A DNA stretch of 64,000 bases from a bacterium (GTDB taxonomy: Bacteria; Electryoneota; Electryoneia; Electryoneales; Electryoneaceae): positions 8,925 to 72,924 of the forward strand of contig JAIOHU010000287.1 of NCBI GenBank assembly GCA_019912845.1, written 5' to 3'. Numbering within the stretch: position 1 is the first letter of the stretch; each line of letters starts with the position of its first letter. Below, one piece after another: positions 3,112-20,448 of this stretch. The notes under the pieces were generated by a model that saw nothing but the letters and a program-made list of their open reading frames with translations, ran no database searches and had not been told where the DNA came from. Made by a program: the position numbers and the translations under genes.

Positions 3112-5157
3112 TTGACCTTTGGCATCCCCGCGCCAACAGGAGGTCAGGAGTTGAAATTCACAACACGCACAGCTCTCTTTTCATTGCTTTGGCTGATTAT
3201 CATCAGTCTGTTTTTTGTTGTCCGATATGACCATCTCATCCAGGTATTAAATTCTCCCCCGGGTCGAATCCTGATTATCGATTCGTTGTATTATAATTCC
3301 TGGGCGATGAAAATATTCCACGGTTTGGGGTTGGGTCCGACTGTCTTTTTTATGAGTCCGCTCTATCCTTTGTTTATTGCGTTCGCAAAAAGCGTGGCAG
3401 GCGACTCAACAGGGTCTGTTCTCTTTTTCCAGCTTATTCTTTCCTTCCTTACACTGATTTTAATCGGCAGGTTCACCTCAAAACGATTTGGTGCATCCGC
3501 TGGTGTACTGGCTGGGTTATTCTATACCCTCTACACACCTGGGATTTATTATGATTCAGTCCTCCTCTCCACAACACTGATTCTTTTCCTTACAATGACT
3601 GCCCTGACCTTCCTCGATATCACTGAAAGCCGTGGTGGACGGTTATGGGTGATTCTCGCTGGTCTGGCGATCGGATTATCTTCTCTTGCAAGACCGAATT
3701 CGCTCATTTTATTGCCGTTCTTCGGATTTGTCTTTGTGCGAAAGTGGAAAAAATACGGATTAGAACAATTCCTCTTCCTCTCAGTTGCGGCAATGATCGT
3801 TGTCTTTCCAGCGATGCTCAGAAATTATATGCTTGGTGGAGAATTTTACCTTACAACCAGTTCGGCTGGTGTGAATATGTACATCGGAAATAATCAGGGA
3901 GCCAATGGTTTGTACTGGGAGGCACCCTGGTTAACCAGTGCCGAACCCTCTGCGGAAGCAGGAGACTACCGTGCAGAGGCTGAAAGACGCCTTGAAAAGA
4001 ATATGACAATCGGTGGGGCATCCACCTACTGGTTGACTCAATCACTTGCTTATATCGTAACGCATCCCGTTGAATGGATGATTCTTGAAGCGAAAAAGTT
4101 TGCGTACTTTTTCAACCGTGTCGAGTCGCCCAATAACGTTAGTTTTTACGGGGTCAAAGAATACTCCTCCGTGTTGCGAAGTTTATGGCTGTTTAATTTT
4201 GGCTGGCTTGCTCCCTTCGCTCTGGTCGGTTTGGTGATAAGCAGACGTGAGCAGGGTTCTGCCTTCGCCTGGGCAGTGGTTCTTGCTTTCCTGACTTCCG
4301 CCCTGTTGTTCTTTGTCTCCGGGGAATACAGATATCCGATTATGGGTGTCATGATTGCTTATGGTGCAGGTGCAATAACTCGTACATTCCATCAATTGCG
4401 TCACAAGGAGATAGAACCAGCGCAAATTTCCATGATACTCCTTTTGGTTTTGCTGATGTTCTGCAATGTACCCTGGAAGACCATGAAAGTGGTTTCCAAC
4501 CCGAAAATGGATTACTTCAACTGGGCATCAACCTCATTCGCACAGAATGATCTACCCAATGCTGCGCTGCTTTTTACTGCCGCAATTGCCTGGGAACCAA
4601 CCTGGGTTGAACCACATCTGCAACTTGCACAGGTTTACGACGAAATGAACCTCACGGAGCTGGCAGACAGTGAATATGAATATGCCGGTATCAGCAGGAG
4701 TCAATTGCAGGCGATACGTGAGCAGGAAGCCATTGCCGAAGTCGTTAATCCAGACTCTCTTACCAGTGGCAATATGAATTCACAGGAATTAACAGAGGTG
4801 GGGGTTCGTTTCAACCAACTTCAGAAGTTTGAACAAGCGGGTATTATCCTGGCTCGAGCCGCTCGTATGGATACAACCAATTACGAGGCTCGTTTCCAGT
4901 TTGCATTTGCTTTAGAAAACACACGTCAATTTGATCAGGCGAAGCAGGTCTATACTGAGCTGGAGCTGGTTCAGGATGAAGACCCTCTGATCCCCTATAG
5001 AATTGCTCATATCGAGTACTATCAGGGGAACAGAGGAAATGCGATGTCTACCCTGCGCCGTGTCAAATATAAAGCGTCAATGCTGACAGACCCAGCAAGC
5101 AAAAAACGCTGGCTTGAAATTGTCAAACAGACCGAAAGTTCATTTATGAATTTCTAA
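3112..5157 (+). CDS. GT-C-fold glycosyltransferase-like polytopic membrane protein (PMT/ArnT/TMTC-like) with a C-terminal TPR-repeat domain
   Basis: About 11 predicted TM helices occupy the first ~440 aa, followed by a soluble tail with TPR-like repeats (..AAIAWEPTWVEPHLQLAQVYDEMN..; ..FQFAFALENTRQFDQAKQVY..). It is a paralogue of the 6072-8075 gene, with shared blocks LARPNSL/LLRANAL, NMYIGNNQGANG/NLYLGNHPSATG and GEYRYP/ARYRFP. The ORF track uses a TTG start at 3112. An alternative TTG at 3154 sits 7 nt after AGGAGG. Confidence 0.55.
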   Translation: MTFGIPAPTGGQELKFTTRTALFSLLWLIIISLFFVVRYDHLIQVLNSPPGRILIIDSLYYNSWAMKIFHGLGLGPTVFFMSPLYPLFIAFAKSVAGDSTGSVLFFQLILSFLTLILIGRFTSKRFGASAGVLAGLFYTLYTPGIYYDSVLLSTTLILFLTMTALTFLDITESRGGRLWVILAGLAIGLSSLARPNSLILLPFFGFVFVRKWKKYGLEQFLFLSVAAMIVVFPAMLRNYMLGGEFYLTTSSAGVNMYIGNNQGANGLYWEAPWLTSAEPSAEAGDYRAEAERRLEKNMTIGGASTYWLTQSLAYIVTHPVEWMILEAKKFAYFFNRVESPNNVSFYGVKEYSSVLRSLWLFNFGWLAPFALVGLVISRREQGSAFAWAVVLAFLTSALLFFVSGEYRYPIMGVMIAYGAGAITRTFHQLRHKEIEPAQISMILLLVLLMFCNVPWKTMKVVSNPKMDYFNWASTSFAQNDLPNAALLFTAAIAWEPTWVEPHLQLAQVYDEMNLTELADSEYEYAGISRSQLQAIREQEAIAEVVNPDSLTSGNMNSQELTEVGVRFNQLQKFEQAGIILARAARMDTTNYEARFQFAFALENTRQFDQAKQVYTELELVQDEDPLIPYRIAHIEYYQGNRGNAMSTLRRVKYKASMLTDPASKKRWLEIVKQTESSFMNF

Positions 5158-6017
5158 TCTCCCCAGACAATTCGGAATCCAAGATCATCCACTCTGTTTT
5201 CCGGGTTGATCGCCTGACGATAGGAAGTTCGAATTTCATAGTTTGAGGATCGATAACTGCCACCACGAATTACACGAACTGTTCCCGTTTCAGGACCAGT
5301 CGGATTATCCAGTGATTCGTCAAAACTGTAGTAGTTTCCATAAAACCAGTCGTGGCACCATTCAAATACTGATCCTGCCATATCATACACACCATAGGGC
5401 GATGCGTATTGTGTGAAACGACCCACTTCCATGGTTGTCGCATCTACACCGTTCCTGCTAAAATCAGCGTGGTTTACAGTCGGGATTTCGTTACCCCAGG
5501 GATAATCATGTAAATCTTCACTGTCGCCTCTAGCAGCTTTCTCCCATTCAGCTTCCGTAGGCAAACGTCCTCCAGCCCAATTACAAAACGCAACCGCACT
5601 GGCATAGTCTATATAGACAACAGGATGGTTTTCATAACTACTGAAAGGTTCAAAGGTGCCATTCGCTCTGTGGATTCGCATATCACCATAATAATGGCTT
5701 TCATTGCCATCATTCAGAAAATAGCAATACTGTTCATTGGTTATTTCAGTCTTTGATATCCAGAACGAATCAACATTTACAGTTCGAGGTGGTGCTTCCC
5801 AGTCATCGGCGTTATAACGACCTCGATTAAAGTTTCCTCCGGGAACCAGAACGTTTTCGATATTCAGGCTATCAGGAAGATCACCGGGTGAGTTGTCGTC
5901 ACCAGTACTATCTGCCGCTCCGACAATTCCACCTCCACCTGGACTTCCTCCACAACCATACAACAGGAGTGATACCAGGGCAGCACTGAAAAACAGTATC
6001 GTCAATTGTCTTTTCAT
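5154..6017 (-). CDS. Formylglycine-generating-enzyme (FGE/SUMF1)-family domain lipoprotein
   Basis: The lipoprotein signal is MKRQLTILFFSAALVSLLLYGC. FGE-sulfatase motifs are present: ..SPYGVYDMAGSVFEWCHDWF.., ..RVIRGGSYRSS.. and ..LGFRIV... The start was moved to the second Met at 6015-6017 to remove overlap with the downstream plus-strand gene. Confidence 0.7.
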   Translation of the reverse strand: MKRQLTILFFSAALVSLLLYGCGGSPGGGGIVGAADSTGDDNSPGDLPDSLNIENVLVPGGNFNRGRYNADDWEAPPRTVNVDSFWISKTEITNEQYCYFLNDGNESHYYGDMRIHRANGTFEPFSSYENHPVVYIDYASAVAFCNWAGGRLPTEAEWEKAARGDSEDLHDYPWGNEIPTVNHADFSRNGVDATTMEVGRFTQYASPYGVYDMAGSVFEWCHDWFYGNYYSFDESLDNPTGPETGTVRVIRGGSYRSSNYEIRTSYRQAINPENRVDDLGFRIVWGD

Positions 6018-6071
6018 CTCACACACCCTACCTTTCCTCAACCTCAGTTCTATCAAAGTTTCATACTGTAT

Positions 6072-8075
6072 ATGAAGATACGCACAAATTTAAGTCAATT
6101 CAGGGAAATCGCCCCCTGGGTTTTACCACTCTCGGTTGCTGTAATAGCTACGGTTATCCGTATTTTGTATCTGGCAGCAGCAGCAAAGCTACCCACCTTT
6201 TTAAGCCCGGGTATGGATGCAGAAATATACCGTAAGTGGGCTGACTCGCTCATCCAGGGCAATTCACCTGATATCCCCTTTTTCCGAGCACCTTTTTACC
6301 CCTATTTCATCGCCGTGTTGGGTAAAATGTTTCATGGCGATACTTTCTGGTCAATCCGAATTATTCAAATATTTTTCAGCTCCCTCTCAGCATCACTGCT
6401 TGCGGTTCTTGCCAGACGCTGGCTTGACTCTTCATTAGCCGGATGGATCGCAGGGGTCGGATGGGCGATATACGGTCTTTCCATCTATTTTGATGGTGAA
6501 GGACTTATCGCGAGTCTCTATACATCGTTTTTTATTCTCCTGATCTATCTACTGGATCATCATCGAAATCACCCTACCCTGCTCAGAACAATCTTCCCAA
6601 TACTGACCCTGGGTATACTGACTTTGTTACGAGCGAATGCGCTGCTCTGGTGGATCGTCGTTCCTGTCCTATTGATCAAACAGTCTAACTTTTATCATAA
6701 AAGATTCGATATTGAGCAAACCCGTAACCTCATAATTGCTATACTCCTCCTCTGCATGATCGTTACCCCAACTATCCTGCACAATTTACGTGCCGGTGGT
6801 GGTTTTGCCATCAGCACCCAGGGAGGTATAAACCTCTATCTTGGCAACCATCCAAGTGCAACTGGTGCTTATGCTGTCGATCCAGACTTTGGAAACGACT
6901 GGACGCGTGAACAAATCGAACATCGCGCTGAAGATATTGAAGGAAGATCATTAACCGCTGCTGAAATATCACGTTTTTATACCAGACTCGCATGGAAATA
7001 CTGGACGACCTCTCCAGTGGATGCCATTGAACTTACGGTTAAAAAATTCCTCCTGATCTTCAATAATCGCGAAATCGGCAACAACCGGGTACTGCTTCCC
7101 TTTATCCATGAAGTGTCACCCCTGCTTGCCGGGTGGGTAAAAATTAACTTTGCACTGATCGCCATTTTGGGACTATCTGGACTCGTTTATGGCTGGCGAA
7201 AGTTCACTAACCTTCGACCTGCAATTGTGCTGGCAGGGGTTCATTTGTTTGGCATATTGCCGTTTTTTATTACTGCACGATACCGTTTTCCAATTACACC
7301 GGTGTTGCTCATCGGCAGTACAGTTTCGCTTATCTATTTGACGCAGATTTTCAAGAAAGGATTAATGGAAAAAGGATTATTTCGGAAGTACTGGCAAATT
7401 GGAATTGTTGCATTGACAACAACGATAATAGTACTCGCCCCCAGCAGTGTTCATGTTGATTCCATGCCGATCGACCAATGGCTTTTCCATCAGGCGAATG
7501 CAGCTTTACGTTTGAATAGATTGGAGATTGCTACCACCAAATTTCACGAAGTCTTACATGAGAACTCGAACTACAAGGATGCTGCCCTGAACCTTGGTGT
7601 TATCCACCTGAGACAATCAGACTTTGATTCTGCAGGTTGGTATTTTGAGCGGGAACTGGAAACCTATCCAGATAATGTTAAAGCGTTGAATAATATGGGA
7701 GTCGTTGAGGAAAGGAATGACAACTTGCAGGAATCCAGAGCTTTTTATCAGCAAGCATTGCTTGCTGACCCGACCCATCTTGACGCACGGATAAACCTTG
7801 CAAGAATTTACAATCGACTCGCTGCACAGGCTATGCAAATACAAGATGTTGAATCAGCTTATAATTACCAGAAACTGGCACTGGAAACCACACCAAAGAA
7901 CCTGGATTACAATGTAAATTTTGCTGTTTACACCGCTGCGAAAGGAGATATCAGAGAGGCTGAAAGATTACTTCGAGACCTGCTTGATGTGCATCCTGAT
8001 CATCCCGGAGCATCGAGAGCTTTTGCACTACTCTCACGTTTCGAGGAATCGGACTCAACTTCCATCATTCGATAA
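6072..8075 (+). CDS. GT-C-fold glycosyltransferase-like membrane protein with a C-terminal TPR domain (paralogue of 3112-5157)
   Basis: It has a polytopic N-terminal domain with the same conserved blocks as the 3112-5157 gene. The C-terminal tail carries TPR-like repeats (..ALNLGVIHLRQSDFDSAGWYFERELETYPDNVKALNNMGVV..). The start was taken at Met23 (ATG 6072) of the ORF-track frame. Confidence 0.55.
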   Translation: MKIRTNLSQFREIAPWVLPLSVAVIATVIRILYLAAAAKLPTFLSPGMDAEIYRKWADSLIQGNSPDIPFFRAPFYPYFIAVLGKMFHGDTFWSIRIIQIFFSSLSASLLAVLARRWLDSSLAGWIAGVGWAIYGLSIYFDGEGLIASLYTSFFILLIYLLDHHRNHPTLLRTIFPILTLGILTLLRANALLWWIVVPVLLIKQSNFYHKRFDIEQTRNLIIAILLLCMIVTPTILHNLRAGGGFAISTQGGINLYLGNHPSATGAYAVDPDFGNDWTREQIEHRAEDIEGRSLTAAEISRFYTRLAWKYWTTSPVDAIELTVKKFLLIFNNREIGNNRVLLPFIHEVSPLLAGWVKINFALIAILGLSGLVYGWRKFTNLRPAIVLAGVHLFGILPFFITARYRFPITPVLLIGSTVSLIYLTQIFKKGLMEKGLFRKYWQIGIVALTTTIIVLAPSSVHVDSMPIDQWLFHQANAALRLNRLEIATTKFHEVLHENSNYKDAALNLGVIHLRQSDFDSAGWYFERELETYPDNVKALNNMGVVEERNDNLQESRAFYQQALLADPTHLDARINLARIYNRLAAQAMQIQDVESAYNYQKLALETTPKNLDYNVNFAVYTAAKGDIREAERLLRDLLDVHPDHPGASRAFALLSRFEESDSTSIIR

Positions 8076-9703
8076 AGTTCAAGACGCCAACGGTTTCCCA
8101 CCTGTCGAACACCCGTACTTTCAACCCCCAACTCCGGGTTCGCATCCGGACCTGGGCTGCTTTCTTCTGTGAGATGCCAGAATTGTGTTTTGCCATCAGC
8201 TTTCAGCAGCTCAAGTGTATGAGTCCATCCTGCAAAATTCCCGGGAAACAATGCACGAATATTGTGGAGACTTGGTCCAAGATCAGCACCCATATACCAA
8301 CCTGAAATGATCACCCATTCGCTCTGGCTGGCACGTTCCACAGAACGTCGCATGAATGCATTCCCCTGCCGTGCCTCAAGCAGCAGTAGCAACGAACTCA
8401 ATTGGATTAGAATACTGAACAGGAGAAACCCGCGAGCGATATTTTGCTTCGTTTTACCCAGCATCGGCAACTTCAAATAAGCAAAGACCGTTGCTACCGC
8501 GATAGCGGGTAACAATAACCGTGGACTATAGTGAATCCCGGGTGGAGATGGATTCGAGACTGTAACCAACAGAATGAATGCGAGAAGTGTAAGTCGCAGT
8601 TTTTTTTCTACCGAGTCTGTCACCGGGAAAAACCACCACAGTGCTGCAAATGGTACCACTGCCAGCCATCCAGTTTCTGCCGCCAGGTTCCCCCATTCAA
8701 CAGGTTTTGAAAGTCGTACTATCCAGATAACCATCAATCCGAGCAGACCGACCATTGTCAGCAGGGAATATTTTAAATCTTTTTGTCTGTTGCCAAGCGC
8801 AATGAATCCCAGAATTCCCAAGCCGATAATTATGTTTTTAATGCCCAGCCCTAAACCCAGGTCATTCTGGATTCGTAAAAAAACAGCCTTGATGCTGAAG
8901 TTTGCCAGACTTGCATTCTCTGTCCATTGCAACGGAAGAATGCTTTCAGTTTGCAGATAATTGAAGACCAGAAACAACGCAATGAGTGATCCTAATGGCA
9001 ATAGAAAACGGAGTAGCAGTTTTTTTGATTGAAAAATGAGTAAAACAATCGCCCACAACACCCCTTCGGGTCGTAACATAATTCCAATTGCTGAAAAAAT
9101 TCCTGCCCACACTGCCGACCGTGTTTTTTTCTCCAGCGAATAACTCAAACTTAGAAGTGCGAATCCCGTGAATAACGTATGTTCCCAAACTGTGAAGGTG
9201 TAAAAATACAGTGGTGTTGCCAGTATAATTACCACTGGCGCATTCAGGATTGATTCGTTAACCTTCACTGTTTTTCTTCTGAACTGTCCGCAGATACGGT
9301 AAGCTGCGAAAGCAGCGAGGAGTGTTCCCAGTAGAGAAAGCAACCGCATTCCCTGCTCCCCGCCAAACTTCCAAAATAAAGACCCAACTACGAGATATAT
9401 TGGACTGTACACACTTATCCAGCGATTTTCTGATTCCAGGAAACGTGCAAAGGGAAATCCATAGGGCAGGAACTTTCCTGAAGGATCAAGTTCCTCTCCA
9501 GGGTTTGGCAACGTGTAGGTGATATCTCCATCTTCTGCCACTGAAGCTGCTGCGAGGGCTTTCATGCCACCATCCATCCCCCAAAAGCCGTCCTTGTCAG
9601 GCAGATAAAACCCGGCAAGTAAAAAACCCAGCGTCAGAAGGTAAAAAAGGGCTATCCATATTGTACGGACAGCCCCTGAAGACTTTTTATCTGAATGTGC
9701 CAC
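8000..9703 (-). CDS. Third GT-C-like polytopic membrane glycosyltransferase (ArnT/PMT-like) with a C-terminal soluble domain
   Basis: About 12 hydrophobic helices fill the first ~430 aa (..LLTLGFLLAGFYLP..; ..RPEGVLWAIVLLIF..), followed by a ~130-aa hydrophilic tail. Its 3' end overlaps the convergent 6072-8075 gene by 76 nt. It is the last gene of the long minus-strand operon. Confidence 0.5.
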   Translation of the reverse strand: MAHSDKKSSGAVRTIWIALFYLLTLGFLLAGFYLPDKDGFWGMDGGMKALAAASVAEDGDITYTLPNPGEELDPSGKFLPYGFPFARFLESENRWISVYSPIYLVVGSLFWKFGGEQGMRLLSLLGTLLAAFAAYRICGQFRRKTVKVNESILNAPVVIILATPLYFYTFTVWEHTLFTGFALLSLSYSLEKKTRSAVWAGIFSAIGIMLRPEGVLWAIVLLIFQSKKLLLRFLLPLGSLIALFLVFNYLQTESILPLQWTENASLANFSIKAVFLRIQNDLGLGLGIKNIIIGLGILGFIALGNRQKDLKYSLLTMVGLLGLMVIWIVRLSKPVEWGNLAAETGWLAVVPFAALWWFFPVTDSVEKKLRLTLLAFILLVTVSNPSPPGIHYSPRLLLPAIAVATVFAYLKLPMLGKTKQNIARGFLLFSILIQLSSLLLLLEARQGNAFMRRSVERASQSEWVIISGWYMGADLGPSLHNIRALFPGNFAGWTHTLELLKADGKTQFWHLTEESSPGPDANPELGVESTGVRQVGNRWRLELYRMMEVESDSSKRESSAKALDAPG

Positions 9704-9712
9704 TAGATATTT

Positions 9713-11683
9713 CTAAAAATGCAGATTGGGGTCGTAGAACCACTCAAGCATTACATCCCAGCATTCAACAACATCGTCATACTCCACGAAATAGTAGGAG
9801 AACGATGTTAAGGCTGTTCTGTAACGCAGTTGAGAGAAGGTGAAGTTGACAACTTCGCCACGTTCATAACGAATTTCAACTGGCTTCAGATGGTAACGAG
9901 TCAGTGGATCATATCGGTAATCAACAGCCAACACATCATCATCTGACCAGGGTTCACCTTCGCTGTAGCTGACACGGATGAGATAATCATTTACCTCAAT
10001 TGGTTCGCCTTCCCAGTTGGCTTCACCATTGTTCAGCAATGTAAGATTCTGTATGGAGGTGACTCCGTCGGTATAAACCTTATCGTTTATAGTGCGTATG
10101 TAACAATCTGTCTGAGTTGGCGGATAATCAAAGGTCTGCTCTTGAGCAGTTCCTTCACGTAATGTCACCCGCGTTAAAACTTCAGAATCTTCATCCTCCA
10201 CTGCGACAACCAGGGTATCAGTCAGCGAGATGAAGTATTGCGTTGTGCTTGCTCCAGGCTTTCTTGCAATAATTTCTGCACCAGAAAGACCGAAGTTGTT
10301 TGGTGCATAGGTTGGCAGGAGATAATTTTCGCCAACCTTGCTAGTATCAAAAGTTAGATTGCGGAATTGCGGAAGCGCAGACCGTGTGCCTATAAAATCT
10401 GCCAGGGGCAGGTTTGCCTCTGTCCAGAGTGGACGTCCACTCAATGAATCTGCAAACAGATATTCATCCAGAAGCAGAGCACCATCGTCGCTGCCGGTGT
10501 TAGTTGTATCCAGCGCATGTTTTCCAACCATTCGCCCCTGATACCAGAGTCTTCCACCTACTCGCAGGTAATCGATCAAAATTTGATTACGAGATGAGGT
10601 ATAATCATCTACTTGATAATTGAGACGTTTGAATTGATCGTTCGCAAAGATCACCAACTTATATTGGTGCACCAACGAATTGGATATCCATGATTCACGA
10701 TTATTAATATCGGTCAACATTAACTGCCTGACATCAACGGTATCTGCGACAATATTCTCACCCAATACATCTGTCAATAGCCTATTGTAGAAATGTTTCA
10801 ATGAATCTGGTTCAGGTCGACCTTGCCCAACTCGTTCCAATGCTTCCACTACCAAAAGCATTCTATTCTCAAATGTCGGCTTGATAACATTGAACTCAAT
10901 TCTCGCCGGTGCAGTAGACAGTGTCAACCCATCATCACGTGCCCAGACATAGAGTGTGTAAAAACCAGTTTCCAGATTCGCCAGGACAATCCCAAGATTG
11001 TCACTAAAGGGTCGCTTGAAAATGGTATCACCAGGTGCTTTTACCAGTATAGGCTGAAATTCCAACGGAATTTTGTATAGGGAACGATCATCCGGGTCGT
11101 TTCCGCGCCAGGTGAATTGAATCCCAGGCCAAGTTGCCGTGATGGATTCGCCACTGTAAAGAGTGTCAGCCACATAAACACTATTACCTATCTCATCGTC
11201 TGTCATGCCAACCATTCCGATTTCCGGGATATTTGGTGGCTGATTAGAGCGAAAGAAAGTACGATATTTTATATCACTGGCTTCACCCTGATCATCAAAG
11301 CAACGAATATAGAAGATATGCTTTTGAATCTCTCCGGCAGGGGTGAGCAGATAGATACGTTCCTCTGTACTATTCGTGCTCGTCCACTCCTCTTCAGGAA
11401 TTTCACTTGCGTAAGCTTGTGGATTGTCAAATGCGGCAGAATCAGTTACATCCGCATAGGAATAGTATTCCACAAAGCCATCCGGGTCGTTCCCTTTCCA
11501 GTAGAGGATAGGTGCTGCACTGAACTGGGAAGAATCAAGAGGAACCGTCACAAAAGAAACATTAGGGCGTTGGTTCTCTTTCTCTGTGCCTTCCAGGTCA
11601 CCACATCCAATCATGGTAAATCCTGAGACCAGGACAACCAGAAGGATGAATATGCCCACTTTGATATATGTATGCTTTCGCAT
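9713..11683 (-). CDS. Large surface lipoprotein of unknown function with an internal duplicated motif
   Basis: The signal and lipobox are ..MRKHTYIKVGIFILLVVLVSGFTMIGCG... A motif repeats internally (ILYWKGNDPDGF / IQFTWRGNDPDD). The start was taken at Met17 to remove overlap with the upstream gene. No catalytic motif was recognised. Confidence 0.45.
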   Translation of the reverse strand: MRKHTYIKVGIFILLVVLVSGFTMIGCGDLEGTEKENQRPNVSFVTVPLDSSQFSAAPILYWKGNDPDGFVEYYSYADVTDSAAFDNPQAYASEIPEEEWTSTNSTEERIYLLTPAGEIQKHIFYIRCFDDQGEASDIKYRTFFRSNQPPNIPEIGMVGMTDDEIGNSVYVADTLYSGESITATWPGIQFTWRGNDPDDRSLYKIPLEFQPILVKAPGDTIFKRPFSDNLGIVLANLETGFYTLYVWARDDGLTLSTAPARIEFNVIKPTFENRMLLVVEALERVGQGRPEPDSLKHFYNRLLTDVLGENIVADTVDVRQLMLTDINNRESWISNSLVHQYKLVIFANDQFKRLNYQVDDYTSSRNQILIDYLRVGGRLWYQGRMVGKHALDTTNTGSDDGALLLDEYLFADSLSGRPLWTEANLPLADFIGTRSALPQFRNLTFDTSKVGENYLLPTYAPNNFGLSGAEIIARKPGASTTQYFISLTDTLVVAVEDEDSEVLTRVTLREGTAQEQTFDYPPTQTDCYIRTINDKVYTDGVTSIQNLTLLNNGEANWEGEPIEVNDYLIRVSYSEGEPWSDDDVLAVDYRYDPLTRYHLKPVEIRYERGEVVNFTFSQLRYRTALTSFSYYFVEYDDVVECWDVMLEWFYDPNLHF

Positions 11684-11702
11684 GCTTCCTACTCCTGTAT
11701 TG

Positions 11703-12329
11703 CTAGCGAATCTGCTGACCCAAACGTTCAATTTCTATCGCGAGTAAGCGTTTTCCTTCAGCCGTATTAACGTCATCAACTGTAAAGTTTGAATTCAGAG
11801 TTTGAACCCAACTGAAGGAGGAATCAAATTCCGTTTCCATGTAGAAGCACTGGGCAATTGTCCAGCGTAAATCTCGATAGTCAATATCTGTTCTGTGCTT
11901 GAAGATGTAGTTCGCATTTTCACCGAGTACCAGCTCATGTGCGGAAATAGCTGCTGTGTAATCATTTCTTGCCAGATGAGCAAACCCCAGACCGGCTTGA
12001 ATGTCATATTTTCCGCCCGGTTTCTCAAGACCGGTGTTCCAGCGAGTTAATGCGGCATCAATTTCTGACGAGCCAAGAAATATTGTCCAACCGGCACCAG
12101 AATAGGGGTCTGCTGAATCATATCCCTTTTTAATGGCACTATTGAAGTAATCCAGGGCGCTTTCAAAATCGGTATCTTCAAACGCTTTCCAACCATCTGA
12201 TGTTAATTCGATAGGACCAGCTTCAGCACTGACCGGATCATCGCCATCGGTACACCCAATAACAAGTAATACCATAAATGGTACGAGCAGATATATGATC
12301 GGTGAAACGTGAAATATTCGCTGTTTCAT
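11703..12329 (-). CDS. TPR-like repeat lipoprotein
   Basis: The lipoprotein signal is MKQRIFHVSPIIYLLVPFMVLLVIGC followed by TDGDDP. Helical repeat content fits a TPR-like fold (..ALDYFNSAIKKGYDSADPYSGAGW..; ..LGFAHLARNDYTAAISAHELVLGEN..). Confidence 0.45.
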   Translation of the reverse strand: MKQRIFHVSPIIYLLVPFMVLLVIGCTDGDDPVSAEAGPIELTSDGWKAFEDTDFESALDYFNSAIKKGYDSADPYSGAGWTIFLGSSEIDAALTRWNTGLEKPGGKYDIQAGLGFAHLARNDYTAAISAHELVLGENANYIFKHRTDIDYRDLRWTIAQCFYMETEFDSSFSWVQTLNSNFTVDDVNTAEGKRLLAIEIERLGQQIR

Positions 12330-12344: not shown

Positions 12345-15300
12345 CTATCGCATCAACATTAATTTTCTGGATTCAACAACTCCGCTTGATCCATCGGTCG
12401 GGGTTGTTTTCAAATGGTAGAAATACACACCGGAGGTAAGCTCATTTCCGTATGCATCATCCGCATTCCAGAAAGCCACATGACGCCCTGATGTGAACCA
12501 TCCCTGAGATATTGTAGCTACCTGCTGACCAAGAACATTAAACAGTGTCAGTTCAATGGTGCTTGGTGTGGACAGTTCAAATGGTATTGATGTTGATGGA
12601 TTGAACGGATTCGGGTAATTGACACCTAATGCAGACTGTTCCGGTAACAGTATAGATTCAACAGAACCATCTCCGGAAAATATTGCATAAGTGCCAGTTT
12701 CATTTATTTGAGTATGCACTGTTTGCGATCTGGTATTTACAAAACTTTCCAACTGATGCCAGCTTCCATTATCAGAGAGCTGCCAGATGCTGAGACCACT
12801 AACTTCACGATTTGAGACTGCATCTTCATCATAAGGAAGAATAAGTTCCGCCGAGTTCGTCCAACTCTCAGATTGTCCATGGATTGTCCATTGGACATTC
12901 ATATCAGACTGGGAGGCTATTGTGTATTCTTCCGGGATGCTCAGACAATGCTCCTGCTCAGCCCAGAACATTACTTCTTTGTTTGTCGCATCTGGAGGGA
13001 AAATTAATCTTGAACCATCATCAGCAGCAAGTATACCACCCGCCGTTGGTTTAAGAAGTGCAACTGATATACTGCGACGGTAGCGTACATCACCGGTATT
13101 TGCTGTATTTCCGCTGACTGTCAAAACCAGGAAGTTCGATTCGGTCATCTCCATGGCATACTGATAAACACCATCAGCGTCGAGCATTATAGGTGTCACC
13201 GTCTCAGTCCCTGTATAATCCTCAATTTCAAGCTGGGGGTTTGAGGTAAACGGCTCTGTGGTATTAATAATAAAGTTCAGATAACGAGGGGTAGCTTGAT
13301 TCTCGAATATCGACATACTCACAGGCGACATACCCCAATATTGAGCATCAGGACCGCCATACAAGCCAATATCATTTCGGAAATTTCCCTTAGACGGTGG
13401 GAAACTATAATCATTATTGGGAGCGGAAGGATCACCACCATCAACCAATGGGCTACCATCAACCGGAACAAAATCGACCAGGTCAGTGAACATAGGACCA
13501 ACATCCACTACTGTTGAGTTAAAATCAACATTCGTGTAAGTGTCAGCATCTTCCACATCGCTATATCTACCGATCAAGCGAGATCCTCGGTCAACAAATA
13601 TATCTGTTCCATCATTTGACCAGACAACAGAATTTCGCACGATAGGATTTGAATTACCAGACACGAAAAAGGCTGATCCTTCGTCTGTATCTGCCGAATT
13701 CCCGAAAATAACATCATTGCGAAGAACAGGTGCACTATTGCCAAAGACATGAACTGCACCGCCACGGTTCACAGCATTATTATTAACTATTCTGGTATTC
13801 GATATAAGTGGTTTTGAGAAATATTCAAAGTAGATTCCGCCACCATTGGTAGTTGCATGATTATTCTGGATTGTGGAAGCAAAGATAAATGGAGAACTTC
13901 CCAACAATGATAATCCACCACCTTTTGTGGTTGCTTCATTGTCTTCGATAATGCAGCGAACGAGTGTGGGACGACTTTGATAAATCCACATCCCACCGCC
14001 ATCAGTATGGCTGAAACAGTTCCTAACCGTCACATCAATAAAATTTGGGTTTGTATTGTAAACTGCAATTCCACCACCATGCCCAAATGGACTTAAACCG
14101 AGTGATTCACTTCCTGCTTCCAATTCGGTCGTGCTTGCATATTCGACAATCGCGTGCTCGAGTCTTGTGTTCGGGTTGCTTGCGATAAACCGTAGCCCCC
14201 CAAAGTATGGATGTTGATCTCTGTTTAGTGGGCTGAATGTTACAGGGTTATCTTCTGAGCCGAGAACTTCAAGTTCACCTTCAACATCAAGCGAGTATAA
14301 TGTATCTCCATCATTGCCTTCAAACATCACTTGAACACCCTCACGGATGACAAGTTTTTTTCCGGCTGGAATTGATGTGGGACCAGCGCATATATACACA
14401 TTGTCGTTACCAAGACCCCATGTATCAGGAATAAATGTAGAGGGGATTTCGCCAGAAAAGTAAACACCACCGCTAGTTCCACGTCCCTTCAGATAAATCA
14501 TTACCTCATCGGTATTTGAATAAACGGTCAAGGTGTCACTATATACCCGTAATTCTGATGGGGAGAATGTGATATTCACTGTCAGAGTATCGTCAACACC
14601 AACATTCGCGTTGTTCCCTGACGGCAGGTTGCTGCTGAACGCCCCCGAACTGAATGCAATACTATCGACATGCATCCCTGTATTTCCACCATTTGTAATC
14701 ATGATCGGCAACGAACGTGTCGAATCGAGATTAACAAACTGGAAGTCGATCGTATCCTCTGCTGCGGGCTCTGTTTCCAGAACCGGACCAATAACCACCA
14801 GCCGCATTTGGATAAATTCTGTCCGGTCATTCGTTCTAACCTGGATACTGTCACGAATCATTCCAGTGTCCCTTGGACGACTGTTAAATGAGGATTCACT
14901 TTCGGGCGGATAATGAACTGTCAAAGTCAACTCTTCACCAGGCAGAATGGTACGTGCCGCTTCACCACCATCAGGTTGAGGAACATCGAAGTTCCCGGAA
15001 AATGTGCGCATCCAGGGCTGTGTTAAGGCTACCAGATTTGTATTTCCCAAATTTCGCAATGTGAAATTTCTGCTTGCTGGTTCATCCAAATCTAGAGTAT
15101 CCATATTAATGGAAGTTGTTGAAAGCTGAAGTTGGGGATCAAATGGATAACCGTAGACAACATACTCTATAGCTCCATCAGGAATGTCAAGCAACATATA
15201 GGCCTTGTCCGTGGCAAATTGTCCTGGAGCAACAATATATTTTACCTCAAACTCCTTGGTACTATCCGGTGAAATGGTCATCTCGGGGAATGGGGCAACG

Positions 15301-16544
15301 GTAAATCTGGAGATATCTTCAGGTAAAGTATCTTCATTTTCTGGATCGAGACTGGTCGTTTCCATAGAAACCATTGACCACTGAACAATCAGGTCATTAT
15401 TCCCGACGTTTCGAATACTTGCAAGCCGAACTGCTGTTGAATCTCCTGGACGAATACCTACAAAACGTATATCCGGATTAGCTGCTTGCGCTACTGGAAC
15501 CGAGCGGGTCGCAAACACAGTTCCACCCCAAAATCCCATATTAATACGTCCACCGTTGGGACGTGGTTCATTCTGCCAGCGACTATCGGAATATTCACCA
15601 CCATCTACACCACGTGACGTAAGCTCCAGGTGGAACATTTCCTCGTCTACAAAATCGGGGTCTTCCTGATAAACAAAGTTGTCGACGTTGCTACCAACCT
15701 GTGAATAAATAGAAAATTTTATGAAAGCAGTATAGAAATTGTCCCCGGCAATCAAAACGTCATCACTTGGATTGTTGACTGTCTGGTCACCATTACGCCA
15801 TAGTATTGAATTTCGCACTACAGGATAGGCATTCGGTCCGAAGTAAATACCGCCACCATAAGTTGTATTAGGTGTACGCAAAGTGATTCCGGCGTCATTG
15901 CGGAAAACGGTGAGATTTTTCAGGTCCAACTCAACACGGTCGAGAAACATCCCTCCACCTTGGCGATTTGCCTCGTTGAAAGCGATTAGATTGTTCCTGA
16001 AATGACTGGAAGACAACCAGATATAAACACCACCACCGCTATATTCAGCTTTACAATTTCGAATAATTGAATTTGTCACTCTGGGCGAGGCGCCGTTAAT
16101 GTAAAGACCACCGCCATTATTATCAGCCCAGGTGGAACCTTCAACACGATGTGCATAACCATGTTCTATAATACAATATTCTATAAAGGAACCTGATTCG
16201 CTGTTATCAAAACGGATTCCACGCCAACGATCTTCACCTGTGAACTGGGAAGTATCCTGTGTGAATGTTACCCAATCGATTCCGGCATTGTCGGGCTGAA
16301 CTTCTCCCTGAGCCTGGAAAACACCCTTCACATAAATCGCGTACGGTCCATTGAAGGTTACAGTAACACCCGCATCAATTTCCAGCATTTCTCCCTGGGG
16401 GACTGTTATATCCCCTTCGACGATGATCGGGCTGTCACCAACCGTCCAGCGTCCGGACACATCTCCGCTCACCTGACTGTAAGCAAAGCTTACTGGCAAG
16501 AGCAGTGCGATAGCCAGGGTTAATAACCTGGTAAATCTGGACAT
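12345..16544 (-). CDS. Giant secreted right-handed beta-helix (pectate-lyase/PbH1-like repeat) protein with a T9SS C-terminal sorting domain
   Basis: The signal peptide is MSRFTRLLTLAIALLLPVSFAYSQ. There are two blocks of parallel beta-helix repeats (..NSIIRNCKAEYSGGGVYI.., ..NNLIAFNEANRQGGGMFL.., ..NTRIVNNNAVNRGGAVHV..). The C-terminus is ..NYPNPFNPSTSIPFEL..LTLFNVLGQQV..SGVYFYHL..KLMLMR, the canonical T9SS type-A tail. Confidence 0.7.
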   Translation of the reverse strand: MSRFTRLLTLAIALLLPVSFAYSQVSGDVSGRWTVGDSPIIVEGDITVPQGEMLEIDAGVTVTFNGPYAIYVKGVFQAQGEVQPDNAGIDWVTFTQDTSQFTGEDRWRGIRFDNSESGSFIEYCIIEHGYAHRVEGSTWADNNGGGLYINGASPRVTNSIIRNCKAEYSGGGVYIWLSSSHFRNNLIAFNEANRQGGGMFLDRVELDLKNLTVFRNDAGITLRTPNTTYGGGIYFGPNAYPVVRNSILWRNGDQTVNNPSDDVLIAGDNFYTAFIKFSIYSQVGSNVDNFVYQEDPDFVDEEMFHLELTSRGVDGGEYSDSRWQNEPRPNGGRINMGFWGGTVFATRSVPVAQAANPDIRFVGIRPGDSTAVRLASIRNVGNNDLIVQWSMVSMETTSLDPENEDTLPEDISRFTVAPFPEMTISPDSTKEFEVKYIVAPGQFATDKAYMLLDIPDGAIEYVVYGYPFDPQLQLSTTSINMDTLDLDEPASRNFTLRNLGNTNLVALTQPWMRTFSGNFDVPQPDGGEAARTILPGEELTLTVHYPPESESSFNSRPRDTGMIRDSIQVRTNDRTEFIQMRLVVIGPVLETEPAAEDTIDFQFVNLDSTRSLPIMITNGGNTGMHVDSIAFSSGAFSSNLPSGNNANVGVDDTLTVNITFSPSELRVYSDTLTVYSNTDEVMIYLKGRGTSGGVYFSGEIPSTFIPDTWGLGNDNVYICAGPTSIPAGKKLVIREGVQVMFEGNDGDTLYSLDVEGELEVLGSEDNPVTFSPLNRDQHPYFGGLRFIASNPNTRLEHAIVEYASTTELEAGSESLGLSPFGHGGGIAVYNTNPNFIDVTVRNCFSHTDGGGMWIYQSRPTLVRCIIEDNEATTKGGGLSLLGSSPFIFASTIQNNHATTNGGGIYFEYFSKPLISNTRIVNNNAVNRGGAVHVFGNSAPVLRNDVIFGNSADTDEGSAFFVSGNSNPIVRNSVVWSNDGTDIFVDRGSRLIGRYSDVEDADTYTNVDFNSTVVDVGPMFTDLVDFVPVDGSPLVDGGDPSAPNNDYSFPPSKGNFRNDIGLYGGPDAQYWGMSPVSMSIFENQATPRYLNFIINTTEPFTSNPQLEIEDYTGTETVTPIMLDADGVYQYAMEMTESNFLVLTVSGNTANTGDVRYRRSISVALLKPTAGGILAADDGSRLIFPPDATNKEVMFWAEQEHCLSIPEEYTIASQSDMNVQWTIHGQSESWTNSAELILPYDEDAVSNREVSGLSIWQLSDNGSWHQLESFVNTRSQTVHTQINETGTYAIFSGDGSVESILLPEQSALGVNYPNPFNPSTSIPFELSTPSTIELTLFNVLGQQVATISQGWFTSGRHVAFWNADDAYGNELTSGVYFYHLKTTPTDGSSGVVESRKLMLMR

Positions 16545-16675
16545 CTGACCCACGACGTCACCTCGTATTCTAAAATCTCGTTCCACTGAATCACCCATTC
16601 CAAGACTCCACCAGCTTGTTTATTACAGCAAAATGATAATTGGCTGGCTTCGTATTTTCATAAACCTGCGACCAA

Positions 16676-17707
16676 TTATTTCAATACATATCCCAGGCTG
16701 AAACGATGCCATCCGCCCAGGTATTGGATTGTCGCATAGGTATAATCAACTTTGAGACCAATATTCCGCATGTACAAACCACCACCAAAACTCATCCCGG
16801 AAAATGAGACCATACCCTCTTCATCGAATACAGGGTATTCATAGAATGGGTTGTTATCTTTGTCTTCAACGTACTCTTCGTTCGAACTGCGTTTCCAACC
16901 GTTAATCTTTTTTCCGAAACGAAGCATCGCTGTCTCTTTGAAGGCATATTCAAAGCCGAGATGGACTTCTTCTGAGTTATCGTTGGGGTGTGTACCTTCC
17001 AAGCCCATGGTCAGACGGCTGTCATCTTTTTGCATAAGATCGACCGCTGTAGCAAACTTAAAGTTCTGAGGTAATGGGAAAGGAGTGGTTACATGCTGCA
17101 TATCCGGGCCGAAGTTGGAGATCAACATTGCGATACGCAGGGATTTCCACCCTGTATCGTAAAATGTGCCAACATCAACAGCCCATCCGAGAGCGTTTTC
17201 ATCAGCCAGATTCTCCTGGATATACTTGACTGATCCACCAACGGAGAACTTATCAGTTAACCTTTGGCTGTAACTAATCGCCGCTGCAAAGTCAGTAGCT
17301 CTAAATGTCTGACCATTTCCGTAGGGAAGCTGATAGGTAGTTACTGGCATATCATCTGTATATAGTGCCGTCATAGATGCGCCCACAGCAGCACCGTACA
17401 TCGGAAGTGGCATAACGCCGCCGATGTAGTCGAAGTTTACCCCTAACCCAGATGGAAAGGCCACATGGGTAAAGATCAACTCCTTCTTCTTGATATTCAC
17501 CAGTCCAGCAGGATTGTAGTATAACGCTGATGCGTCATCCGCTATCGCAAGAAACGCATCTGCCATAGCAACCGCACGCGAAGACACCCCAATCTTGAGG
17601 AAATTCACCCCGGTCGTTCCTACCTTGGCCTGACCAAACACCAGACCCGGAATGATCAGCGCAACAGCTAATCCGATTGCAAACCATTGCTTGCGCGTCA
17701 TGTTCAC
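16676..17707 (-). CDS. FadL/PorV-family outer-membrane beta-barrel (candidate T9SS shuttle, PorV-like)
   Basis: A signal peptide is present. The N-terminal block VGTTGVNFLKIGVSSRAVAMADAFLAIADDASALYYNPAGL matches the FadL/PorV hallmark (..ADDAS..NPAGL). The C-terminus is aromatic. It sits directly between two T9SS cargo genes, 8 nt after the upstream one. Confidence 0.5.
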   Translation of the reverse strand: MNMTRKQWFAIGLAVALIIPGLVFGQAKVGTTGVNFLKIGVSSRAVAMADAFLAIADDASALYYNPAGLVNIKKKELIFTHVAFPSGLGVNFDYIGGVMPLPMYGAAVGASMTALYTDDMPVTTYQLPYGNGQTFRATDFAAAISYSQRLTDKFSVGGSVKYIQENLADENALGWAVDVGTFYDTGWKSLRIAMLISNFGPDMQHVTTPFPLPQNFKFATAVDLMQKDDSRLTMGLEGTHPNDNSEEVHLGFEYAFKETAMLRFGKKINGWKRSSNEEYVEDKDNNPFYEYPVFDEEGMVSFSGMSFGGGLYMRNIGLKVDYTYATIQYLGGWHRFSLGYVLK

Positions 17708-17715: not shown

Positions 17716-20448
17716 TTATCGAATGATTACGAATTTGCCAACATCAATATGACCTTCATTTCCTGCAGTTCTATCTTCGACACTGAAGAAATACAGCCCT
17801 GAAACCACTTGCTGCTGGTTGCGGCTGTTGAGGTCCCAAACTTCTGCATGATCAGAAACCCAATTCGAAATTCGGTTTCCAGAAATATTATGATCTATTA
17901 AAGTAACAAGGTCACCAGAAACGGTGAAAATTCTGATATAGCATTTTTTAGGCAGATTGTAGAAATACATTCTACGATCTGTCTGTGGGAAATAATTCGG
18001 AGTGCCATCATTCCGGTTTTCCCATGCTACAAATGTTGTATCCACATCATAAATCAATTGCATGTGCTGCTGAGTATAGTCCATATCTGCTCTGTACGGA
18101 TTCGGCACGACACCTGGTTTCTTGCGGTCTGTGCCTGAGGGTGCCAGGTAGAGCATATTTGCGGACTTCGCAGTTTCCAATGGTTCAGTGCCTGAGAAGG
18201 GATCGCCATAGTCGAATGCTGTAACCGTGTAATAGCGCGGTATCATCGGGTTTGTTTCGCCGATATCGAACACATACATGGAATCAACATCAGGGTCTAC
18301 CAAGGATGCAAGCCCTATATTCGGACCTACTGGTCGCAGGAATCCGGTCACACCAAGTGTATTTGTCATTATTTCGGGCAATGTGTCCGGTTGAGTTGTA
18401 GCGATCGGGATAGACATCAATGAATCTCGCTCACTGTAGTAAGCGAAATCGATCCTGTCATATTCGGCAACCAGACTGAATTCTGTTTCCAGACCAGTAT
18501 TTGAGACATAGATGCGATACCCTTCAAAGTCTTGCAAACGACTGAACGGATCCTGATACTCCTCAGATTCTGATGGAAATTTTCCCCACTTCAAATAAAC
18601 ATTTTTTGTGTCAGAGCTGGAAGTTAGAATCGGCACTTCAGGTGGTGGTGGACCACGAAAATCGGGTTCCCCATCGCCCTGATCGAAAAGCTCGTTGTTA
18701 TAGGTATAATCGTATTGAATTGGACGAGGTGCCAAATCCTCTTCCAATTGGAAAACACCATCAAGTTCTCCGGAATCCGGTTCAGTATAAACTGCTGTAA
18801 ACAGTTCATTATTCCAGTTGATCCAGCGTAAGGTGTCACCGATTGAATCAGAATAGATTCCATCAACACCTACATCTTCGCCAAACCAGCCATCGCCATT
18901 GGTGTCAATCATCGGGTTATCATAGACTTTTGCAGCCCAGTCAGCGTTATACTGAAAATCTGAAAAATCAAACAACTCATAATCGATCTGTTCACTGCTG
19001 GGTTGCGGATGCTGACGGTCATGGAAGTTTTCACCAGCGACATAAGCTATTGTCATGGAAAACTTTTCACCCGGATTCAAGCGATAGATTCTATTTCCAC
19101 CTTCATCGATGTGATCAAAAACGCCCAACGGTCCCCAGGATAGCAGATAACGTGTATCAAAGCCATTGGCTAGATCATCGGCATTTCCGGCATCTGGGAT
19201 ACGCCAATCGTGAGCCTCCAAAACTTCGTTGGTGAATCGATTTACGAACTCCTGCGAATTACCACTGATGTACGCTGGATCATTGACACGAATCTGGTCA
19301 TAGTCAAATTCACGGTTTGAAAGCACAAAGTATTTTCTTTCATCGTCCTCGGGCGTGCCCAGTGTACCTGTCCAGTTACCAGGACTGTGATCATCTTCCC
19401 AGGCAGGACCAAAATCATTGTTTGCGTCAGTATTGGAAATCCACCAGTTGAATGATGTACGTAATTTTGGATTTGGAGCACGAACGACACGTGTTCCCGT
19501 AACTCCAGGTCCAGAAAAATCATTTCCTGAATTTACATTTCTTGGACGACCATCATTGTCCGAGATATAGGCTGTATTAATGGTCAGGGTATATTCCTGA
19601 TTGGATCCCTGAGGCTGATATTGATATGAAGTCTTAAAACCGCAAATATCATCCTGTGCACGGTTATTGCCCGATTCTGAAACGTGCCCGACATCCGCAT
19701 CAACGTACAAACCGACGAACAGGTTTTTCAGAAAATTGTTGGCAATATTTTCGATCTCATAATCGATAATGATAAAATCACGTGCATAGTTATATGACCA
19801 GGCATACGATTTTTGAGTAACCTTAATTCCGAGCGGGACATGGGGTCCATCACGCGGTGTGCTCAGCTCAGAACCGAGCGGACTGACTCTATGGGTATCG
19901 GTATAGGATGAAATAAAGTCCTGCTCTGAAACTGCCTCATCGCTGGTGATAAACTCACCAAGGCAATTATATGCATTTTGTCGTGAAGACCTTTCAACAA
20001 TTCCATTGCCAGGTTCATGTCCCGGGAAAAACTCACGTCCGAGATAAGGGTCATTCGCAGATGCCAGCCAACCTTCAACACCTGTCGAAACTCTGGCATA
20101 CTCAAAACCTTCTTCCTGAATAATAGCCCCAATCCACATTGCTCCCATAAAGAGATATTGAATGCCGCTATTAGCAGGGAATTCAGCTTGAGGCGACCAT
20201 TCACCAGTACAAGGGTCTTCCAGGAAACCATCTCTGTCGCTTCCATCATTTCCAAAATAACCATAATTCGTGATGGTCAGCCAGATATTCCCGACATCAT
20301 GTAATCTGTTTTCTGTCTGAATAACATCAATCGTAGGGTTGTATTCCGGTTTCACCGGCCCACGGTCGACAATTTCCTGAAAACGTGCGTATGCAGATGT
20401 TGCAATCAGCAAAGCAAGCAAAAGGAAAATGAAAGTTCTGAATTGCAT
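17716..20448 (-). CDS. Secreted 910-aa protein of unknown function with a T9SS-type C-terminal domain
   Basis: The signal peptide is MQFRTFIFLLLALLIATSAYA. The C-terminus ..IRIFTVSGDLV..WDLNSRNQQQVVSGLYFFSV..GKFVIIR resembles a T9SS sorting domain. No catalytic motif was recognised. Confidence 0.5.
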   Translation of the reverse strand: MQFRTFIFLLLALLIATSAYARFQEIVDRGPVKPEYNPTIDVIQTENRLHDVGNIWLTITNYGYFGNDGSDRDGFLEDPCTGEWSPQAEFPANSGIQYLFMGAMWIGAIIQEEGFEYARVSTGVEGWLASANDPYLGREFFPGHEPGNGIVERSSRQNAYNCLGEFITSDEAVSEQDFISSYTDTHRVSPLGSELSTPRDGPHVPLGIKVTQKSYAWSYNYARDFIIIDYEIENIANNFLKNLFVGLYVDADVGHVSESGNNRAQDDICGFKTSYQYQPQGSNQEYTLTINTAYISDNDGRPRNVNSGNDFSGPGVTGTRVVRAPNPKLRTSFNWWISNTDANNDFGPAWEDDHSPGNWTGTLGTPEDDERKYFVLSNREFDYDQIRVNDPAYISGNSQEFVNRFTNEVLEAHDWRIPDAGNADDLANGFDTRYLLSWGPLGVFDHIDEGGNRIYRLNPGEKFSMTIAYVAGENFHDRQHPQPSSEQIDYELFDFSDFQYNADWAAKVYDNPMIDTNGDGWFGEDVGVDGIYSDSIGDTLRWINWNNELFTAVYTEPDSGELDGVFQLEEDLAPRPIQYDYTYNNELFDQGDGEPDFRGPPPPEVPILTSSSDTKNVYLKWGKFPSESEEYQDPFSRLQDFEGYRIYVSNTGLETEFSLVAEYDRIDFAYYSERDSLMSIPIATTQPDTLPEIMTNTLGVTGFLRPVGPNIGLASLVDPDVDSMYVFDIGETNPMIPRYYTVTAFDYGDPFSGTEPLETAKSANMLYLAPSGTDRKKPGVVPNPYRADMDYTQQHMQLIYDVDTTFVAWENRNDGTPNYFPQTDRRMYFYNLPKKCYIRIFTVSGDLVTLIDHNISGNRISNWVSDHAEVWDLNSRNQQQVVSGLYFFSVEDRTAGNEGHIDVGKFVIIR

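Follow-up and report, generated by a model that had tools for sequence, protein, structure and literature searches.

TMEM260 is a human protein O-mannosyltransferase of the PMT_2 superfamily, with 11 transmembrane (TM) helices, the residue D52 and a C-terminal tetratricopeptide repeat (TPR) domain (PMC10214176). Its TPR domain is necessary and sufficient to bind the acceptor peptide, and a Rossmann-like domain lies between the TM core and the TPR (bioRxiv 10.64898/2026.03.17.711096). The TPR tails of the characterised GT-C enzymes TMTC and TMEM260 recognise protein acceptors (PMC10214176; bioRxiv 10.64898/2026.03.17.711096), and distant bacterial homologues are mentioned in the papers on both (PMC7801869, PMC10214176). 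Fusions of a PMT_2-type GT-C domain with TPRs are very common in bacterial genomes, and in animals the same layout (TMTC, TMEM260) serves protein-specific O-mannosylation. In this study, we analysed a locus that encodes two such fusions (GT1 and GT2), a third GT-C enzyme (GT3) and a lipoprotein with the fold of the formylglycine-generating enzyme (FGE). It lies in a stretch of 64,000 nucleotides (nt) from a bacterium of the phylum Electryoneota (assembly GCA_019912845.1, contig JAIOHU010000287.1, positions 8,925 to 72,924), here called the window.

We found that the window is a mosaic and not a dedicated four-gene system. Its parts are a conserved junction between GT2 and an adjoining operon for a PorV-family barrel and type IX secretion system (T9SS) cargo, a clade-specific pair of GT3 and the FGE-like gene, and GT1, a lineage-specific arrival at the 3' end of the FGE-like gene. 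An earlier note on this DNA had read the four genes as one modification system, which was not borne out: GT1 lies elsewhere in relatives, and GT3 with the FGE-like gene is confined to one clade. The whole of our best explanation, in which GT2, with or without GT3, would glycosylate a product of the operon while GT1 and the FGE-fold protein are separate, is tentative, and we give it a little less than even weight.

Conservation of the GT2/operon junction

Genomic contexts were collected by exact protein look-ups, by a scan of a genome collection with the GT2 alignment (64 loci) and by a metagenome scan with a four-sequence GT3 alignment (2 loci), and were scored by tblastn with the window proteins. 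The closest named relatives are Candidatus Electryonea clarkiae (FCB group, phylum Electryoneota) and metagenome-assembled genomes of Calditrichaeota. We found orthologues of GT2 (6072..8075, plus strand, 667 amino acids (aa); identical at 100% to an NCBI 'tetratricopeptide repeat protein') with 36-46% identity, standing tail-to-tail with the operon in 11 of the 12 informative species-level genomes and in further metagenome contigs. The operon, which converges on GT2, encodes a 672-aa lipoprotein, a TPR lipoprotein, a beta-helix cargo protein, a PorV-family barrel and a 910-aa protein. The upstream neighbour of GT2 differs between genomes. Distant GT2 homologues (at most 29% identity; from Zixibacteria, Ignavibacteriales and others) show none of the GT2/operon synteny.

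Distribution of GT3, the FGE-like gene and GT1

GT3 (8000..9703, minus strand, 567 aa; NCBI 'hypothetical protein K8I28_17120') is located between GT2 and the operon in the window and in five other genomes (L007/L008, L010/L073, L012, L014 and L021/L076), with L014 confirmed by BLASTP. As the final gene of the minus-strand operon, it follows the 672-aa lipoprotein gene at a distance of 9 nt, and eight other genomes do not have it. The FGE-like gene (5154..6017, minus strand, 287 aa; NCBI MBZ0266379.1 'formylglycine-generating enzyme family protein') stands in divergent orientation to GT2 in the window and at L007, L010, L014 and L021. In eight related genomes, GT2 and the operon are retained, with neither GT3 nor the FGE-like gene present. 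In a rough neighbour-joining tree of GT2 orthologues, the genomes with both genes fall together. We considered the co-occurrence of the two (both in five genomes, neither in eight) as evidence of coupling and down-weighted it, since these genomes cluster on the GT2 tree.

Orthologues of GT1 (3151..5157, plus strand, 668 aa; NCBI MBZ0266378.1 'glycosyltransferase family 39 protein') have 41-61% identity and occur in the same genomes as GT2 orthologues, but elsewhere. At L003 and L005/L006, an M24 Xaa-Pro peptidase gene flanks them on one side and a sigma-54 response regulator gene on the other; the regulator is followed by Bac_transf, an MsbA-like ABC protein and GT4, and at L005/L006 also by GT9; in a third relative (L004) the neighbours are different. 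The window was the only locus examined in which GT1 stands beside GT2. A repeat search around GT1 and the FGE-like gene revealed no flanking repeats and no mobile-element scars. In our best explanation, GT1 is an old paralogue that was brought here by rearrangement, and its neighbours in relatives make lipopolysaccharide (LPS) or an envelope glycan the more likely target. We also observed that GT1 occupies the position where relatives carry the continuation of an operon of the FGE-like gene, an M20 peptidase and a patatin/Omp85 fusion.

These distributions bear on the proposal that the four genes are one surface-protein glycosylation or modification system for T9SS cargo, a counterpart of TMTC-type O-mannosylation with the FGE-like protein as a partner enzyme. 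In its favour are the tight packing of the genes, which are separated by 54 nt at one junction and overlap by 4 nt and 76 nt at the other two, the joint occurrence of the FGE-like gene, GT2 and GT3 in four other genomes, and the adjacent T9SS operon. We nevertheless consider it highly doubtful. GT1 adjoins GT2 in the window only; eight related genomes have GT2 and the operon, with GT3 and the FGE-like gene both missing; the FGE-like protein has no catalytic Cys pair, and its gene is co-oriented in relatives with the M20 peptidase and patatin-Omp85 genes; and no DUF1736 was found in the transferases.

All four open reading frames (ORFs) are present, as seen from the ORF listing and translation, and each matches an existing NCBI record. 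The cluster consists of uncharacterised members of known enzyme families and is not a demonstrated new glycosylation system. Starts had been placed slightly too far upstream for three genes, GT1, the FGE-like gene and GT2. GT1 starts at TTG 3151 with AGGAGG ahead of it, in register with its orthologues and at the same residue as the NCBI protein. The FGE-like gene starts at ATG 6017 and GT2 at ATG 6072, both in agreement with the NCBI proteins, and with these corrected starts a 54-nt divergent spacer replaces their apparent overlap. GT1 and the FGE-like gene converge with a 4-nt overlap (cTAa, 5154-5157). A promoter and terminator scan of positions 2600-10000 gave nothing above shuffled expectation, with no terminator between the convergent genes.

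GT1 and GT2 are paralogous PMT_2-type enzymes with TPR tails

We compared the two TPR-tailed proteins and found that they are 29% identical over 377 aa of the membrane domain (E 1e-28); their standing as TPR-tailed paralogues is confirmed. GT1 passes the Pfam PMT_2 model (PF13231; 42.7 bits against a cutoff of 26.1, 9e-11) and matches TPR_19 in its degenerate C-terminal tail. PMT_2 is matched by 19 of the 20 N-domains of the GT1/GT2 family, the window GT2 being the one without a match, and the Pfam PMT model by just one of the 20. The PMT_2 signature is present in the family, and the ArnT signature was not found: the NCBIfam model NF009784 scored 17.9 bits on GT2 against a cutoff of 567. In PDB sequence and profile searches, the GT1/GT2 profile touched only ArnT, at a marginal E of 0.2, and otherwise gave TPR matches.

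An AlphaFold (AF2) model of GT2, built on 20 orthologues, reached a predicted local distance difference test score (pLDDT) of 86 and a predicted template modelling score (pTM) of 0.84. In this model, 11 long helices extend up to residue 455 and are followed by TPR helices at residues 467-660, and a 110-residue loop joins helices 7 and 8. The tail is also supported by Pfam TPR matches. Because the helices are odd in number and the N-terminus is positively charged, the tail is predicted to lie on the periplasmic side. ArnT is among the top three structural matches of the model. The order of 11 TM helices and a TPR tail is that of the TMTC proteins, as had been claimed. The likeness does not extend to DUF1736: a search allowing E values as high as 10 found no match to it in GT1 or GT2, and the 20 N-domains all lacked one at a limit of E 0.01. 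DUF2723 was likewise missing from the 20 N-domains, and no MIR domain appeared among the Pfam matches of GT1 and GT2.

The residue D49, at the start of the first periplasmic loop helix, is invariant in 22 GT1/GT2 sequences and sits just after TM1 in the model. An adjacent catalytic Asp-Glu pair had been expected in this loop and is absent: the motif reads GMD-A-E in GT2 (D49-A-E51) and IID-S in GT1. The strongest motifs of the family, seen in an alignment of 20-22 sequences, are located in the TM7-TM8 loop (QGGINLYLGN and VDPxFGxxWT).

An Asn at TPR position 6 recurs in GT2 orthologues (N507, N540, N575) and was considered as an 'asparagine ladder' like that of OGT. Since Asn at this position is part of the general TPR consensus, it was dropped as evidence and is not counted toward peptide binding.

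GT3 is a divergent GT-C protein

For GT3, no Pfam family was found above threshold, PMT_2 included, and no sequence or profile match was found in the PDB. The NCBIfam model LA_3751/LA_3752 (NF047440) gave 135.4 bits (E 2.5e-39), below its curated cutoff of 200, with residues 19-508 of GT3 covering model positions 4-455, nearly the full length. An exhaustive HMMER search recovered 565 relatives, nine of them below 1e-30; a word-index search found almost none. The GT3 profile aligns to the profile of the GT1/GT2 N-domains with an hhalign probability of 90.5% (E 1.3e-6), and the predicted fold, which includes a small C-terminal alpha/beta domain, is closest to ArnT as the top structural match. 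Within the family, D44 is nearly invariant (17 sequences), and WEH173-175, R211 and GxH391xxR395 are invariant. D44 sits just after TM1 in the predicted model, and residues 553-567 form a disordered tail (pLDDT < 50).

Because the GT-C fold and the conserved loop-1 Asp are present in all three proteins, they fit the GT-C class. Taken together, the PMT_2 matches, the hhalign link of GT3 and the models bear out the claim that GT1, GT2 and GT3 are all genuine GT-C (GT-C_A class) membrane glycosyltransferases.

The tails of GT3-family proteins vary mid-way and often end in D-x-G or DPG, which could be a terminal motif. Examples are LDAPG (window, 8000-8062, minus strand), SSDPG (L007, 5685-5747), YGDSG (L010, 9324-9390) and DIPDPG in the P0119 homologue, which is 22% identical.

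The 3' ends of GT2 and GT3 overlap by 76 nt

GT2 and GT3 converge and share 76 nt (8000..8075), as read directly from the sequence and the stop codons, and NCBI annotates both genes at the same lengths. According to the models, the overlap covers the last TPR helix and the 10-residue variable tail of GT2, together with the end of the last beta-strand and the disordered tail of GT3. The last TPR helix of GT2 is thereby opposite the disordered tail of GT3, and the variable tail of GT2 is opposite the end of the last beta-strand of GT3.

Long convergent overlaps are uncommon and the source is a metagenome-assembled genome, so we considered an assembly or sequencing artefact, in which a frameshift extended one C-terminus. 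The proteins argue against this, GT2 aligning with its orthologues up to residue 665 of 667 and GT3 with its homologues up to residues 547-564 of 567. The same junction also overlaps in independent genomes, by 79 nt in L007, 125 nt in L021/L076 (both from independent gene calls) and 125 nt in L014, and relatives with equivalent overlaps are just 28-44% identical. At L012 and L010 it is a gap of 3 nt and 22 nt. Since the C-termini align to near the stop codons and the overlap recurs in other genomes, a sequencing error or frameshift is very unlikely, to the point of being barely credible. The 76-nt overlap, which the earlier note had reported, is thus genuine and recurs at this junction.

The tails of GT2 orthologues share (E/P)SDST(S/A), found as EESDSTS in the window (8043-8072, plus strand), SESDSTA in L021 and SPDSTSV in L009. 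This motif is independent of the overlap, because L009 has no overlapping GT3.

The FGE-fold lipoprotein lacks the catalytic cysteines

The protein encoded between GT1 and GT2 was confirmed as an FGE-family lipoprotein. It matches the FGE-sulfatase domain (PF03781) with 190.5 bits against a cutoff of 23.3 (5.7e-56) and the FGEs of the PDB at 1e-29 to 3e-33, and it has a signal peptide, the lipobox LLYGC and then a Gly-rich linker. The segment LCHESYC of the T. curvata FGE (6s07) aligns to RSS-NY, so that both copper-binding Cys are gone, and the aligned segment, GGSYRSSNYEIR, is free of any Cys. Four recovered orthologues are also lipoproteins with a Gly-rich linker and without the standard CxxxxC pair. 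Because both catalytic Cys are absent, the protein is not a formylglycine-generating enzyme and, judged from its sequence, cannot make formylglycine.

GldK, PorK and GldJ models and PorK structures also match this protein, the GldK model TIGR03525 reaching 114 bits where its cutoff is 350. Like PorK, GldK and GldJ, the protein probably has a binding or structural function. In L007 and L021, the gene heads a co-oriented operon with an M20 peptidase and a patatin/Omp85 fusion (L007 7725-12643; L076 4602-9965). The link of this lipoprotein to the transferases is weak, and the missing Cys pair together with its own operon in relatives goes against the role of enzyme partner that it had been given.

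A possible role in periplasmic protein glycosylation

We then consider what GT2 may do beside the operon. In keeping with what is established for GT-C enzymes, GT1, GT2 and GT3 would most likely work at the periplasmic face of the inner membrane with a polyprenyl-phosphate-linked sugar as donor, and the transfer would proceed via the conserved loop-1 Asp, D49 in GT1 and GT2 and D44 in GT3. GT2 would be the conserved core, held tail-to-tail with the PorV-family/T9SS-cargo operon across Electryoneota/Calditrichota-like genomes, and GT3 an optional last operon gene of one clade, its disordered tail running into the tail of GT2. Our best guess is that GT2, plus GT3 where present, may glycosylate an operon product in the periplasm before or during export, with the beta-helix cargo or one of the two lipoproteins as candidate acceptors. 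By analogy with TMEM260, the TPR tail of GT2 would dock the protein acceptor, which makes TPR-guided periplasmic glycosylation of an operon product plausible. We infer the link to T9SS cargo glycosylation from the conserved gene neighbourhood. An enzyme locked beside one defined secretion operon would offer a concrete set of candidate acceptors.

A narrower form of this reading, in which GT2 (joined by GT3 in one clade) would be dedicated to the TPR-guided O-glycosylation, in the periplasm, of the T9SS beta-helix cargo or its lipoprotein partners, as a functional counterpart of TMTC and TMEM260, seems to us quite unlikely. If true, such a cargo-specific O-glycosyltransferase would be the first characterised bacterial PMT_2-TPR enzyme, and the conserved tail-to-tail overlap would couple the expression of GT2 and GT3.

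Several observations weigh against a role of GT2 in glycosylating an operon product. GT2 and the operon are convergent, hence not co-transcribed, and one GT2 orthologue (L016/L075) occurs without the operon. A GT3 homologue in L074 follows ruvB-queA, a housekeeping context with no related neighbours. The presence of GT3 and the FGE-like gene follows phylogeny, and a single gain or loss could therefore explain it. T9SS cargo is dense in this genome, with five such proteins in 64 kb, so that adjacency to one of them is unsurprising. There is no polyprenyl-phosphate sugar synthase nearby, and the sole GT2-family gene of the window (55114-56073) looks soluble. Periplasmic TPR domains serve in polysaccharide export too, and a protein acceptor is therefore not implied. 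The literature that we searched held no characterised bacterial PMT_2-TPR (GT-C/TPR) enzyme by which the reading could be anchored.

The main rival is that the three transferases are ArnT-like modifiers of lipid A, the LPS core or another envelope glycolipid or polysaccharide, in which case the T9SS adjacency would be historical and functionally meaningless. For GT1 this is favoured by the context in relatives, where its orthologues stand beside MsbA-like ABC, GT4, GT9 and Bac_transf genes. The structural ranking of ArnT, first for GT3 and in the top three for GT2, points the same way, as does its being the sole PDB sequence that the GT1/GT2 profile touches (E 0.2). The convergent orientation of GT2 to the operon and the unrelated context of the L074 homologue would also suit it. 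As an account of all three enzymes, however, we regard it as somewhat unlikely: 11 of 12 genomes preserve the GT2/operon junction despite changes upstream of GT2, GT3 is part of the operon and begins 9 nt past the 672-aa lipoprotein gene, and the TPR tails of TMTC and TMEM260 recognise protein acceptors (PMC10214176).

With glycosylation of an operon product as the preferred, tentative reading, the new findings are modest: the GT2/operon junction is conserved, a clade-specific GT3 ends the operon, and the long overlap of the tails recurs. For annotation, the cluster is not one system, the protein called 'FGE' is predicted to be incapable of making formylglycine, and the long convergent overlap, which recurs in relatives, is not an assembly error.

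The adjoining operon and other features of the window

The adjacency of a T9SS cargo operon was confirmed by two of its products. The 1417-aa beta-helix protein (12345..16598, minus strand) has Ig-like domains, a Beta_helix match (1.6e-22) and a T9SS type A C-terminal sorting domain (TIGR04183, 27 bits against a cutoff of 23). The 343-aa outer-membrane barrel of the PorV/PorQ family (16676..17707, minus strand) matches NCBIfam NF033709 with 189 bits against a cutoff of 90 and is 57-74% identical across the syntenic loci. The 672-aa lipoprotein (9713..11731, minus strand; likely start ATG 11683) is a conserved operon member, found in all syntenic loci with 41-55% identity, and has no match in Pfam, NCBIfam or the PDB. 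The small TPR-like lipoprotein of 208 aa (11703..12329, minus strand), also conserved, has a weak TPR_16 match and 33-53% identity in the syntenic loci.

The 910-aa protein (17716..20448, minus strand) has no match in Pfam, NCBIfam or the PDB and is 58-74% identical across loci. It is always paired with the PorV-family barrel, and the two (16676-20448, minus strand) are the best-conserved pair of the block, with 57-74% identity. It may be an unrecognised partner of the PorV-type barrel, possibly an analogue of PorU or PorZ in Electryoneota/Calditrichota. Two Zixibacteria genomes encode a remote homologue of the 910-aa protein, with 25-34% identity, within 5-8 kb of a distant GT2-like PMT_2-TPR gene (L040 3451-5884, L059 18584-20143), which may hint at a wider association.

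The five proteins of the window with a T9SS C-terminal domain are the beta-helix protein (12345-16598), an S8 peptidase (33012-36125), an LVIVD-repeat protein (38743-42132), a 2134-aa multi-domain protein (46188-52592) and a penicillin amidase (57990-60134). No tRNA was found in the 64 kb.

Other features were observed elsewhere in the window. An ORF on the plus strand (36248-38398) encodes an unusual fusion of a urea-transporter (UT) membrane domain (residues 29-330) with an M23 peptidase (residues 429-519). A molybdenum cofactor (Moco) riboswitch (62956-63089, minus strand; 71.6 bits against a gathering score of 36) is located upstream of moaA, moaC and MOSC/MoCF genes (61958-63025, 61486-61956 and 60411-61394). 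A Mut7-C RNase domain protein (31572-32399, minus strand) has an N-terminal ubiquitin-like Ub-Mut7C domain, and its listed ORF runs into the 3' end of the small GTPase gene upstream (32329-32922).

Comparison with known systems

No relevant paper on the T9SS in Electryoneota or Calditrichaeota, and none on the LA_3751/LA_3752 family, was found in the literature searched. GT3 resembles that family of putative glycosyltransferases (NF047440), itself uncharacterised, in a nearly whole-model alignment, with a score under the cutoff. The FGE-fold protein is like PorK/GldK and GldJ in being a lipoprotein of the FGE-sulfatase fold without the copper-binding Cys of FGE. Its length of 287 aa is much less than that of PorK/GldK, its score does not reach the GldK cutoff, and its gene lies outside any gldKLMN-type operon.

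Among the transferases, ArnT (GT83, the Und-P-L-Ara4N:lipid A transferase) is similar at the level of the fold only, with a sequence identity of 13%; it has no TPR tail, and no arn genes are found near the cluster. GT1 and GT2 differ from Pmt/PMT1-2 (GT39) in having neither the adjacent Asp-Glu nor the MIR domain.

TMTC1-4 (GT105), the O-mannosyltransferases of cadherins, share with GT2 the order of 11 TM helices and a luminal or periplasmic TPR domain and the long conserved TM7-TM8 loop (PMC7801869). Their DUF1736 loop was undetected in the 20 N-domains, so that the likeness is one of architecture and not of family membership. TMEM260 shares with GT1 and GT2 the 11-TM GT-C core, the loop-1 Asp (D52 in TMEM260, D49 here), the non-cytoplasmic C-terminal TPR and the PMT_2 superfamily, and is of similar length (707 aa against 667-668 aa). 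GT2 differs from TMEM260 in being bacterial and in lacking DUF2723 and the Rossmann-like domain, its TPR beginning about 12 residues past TM11. Of the two animal systems, TMEM260 is probably the nearer analogue.

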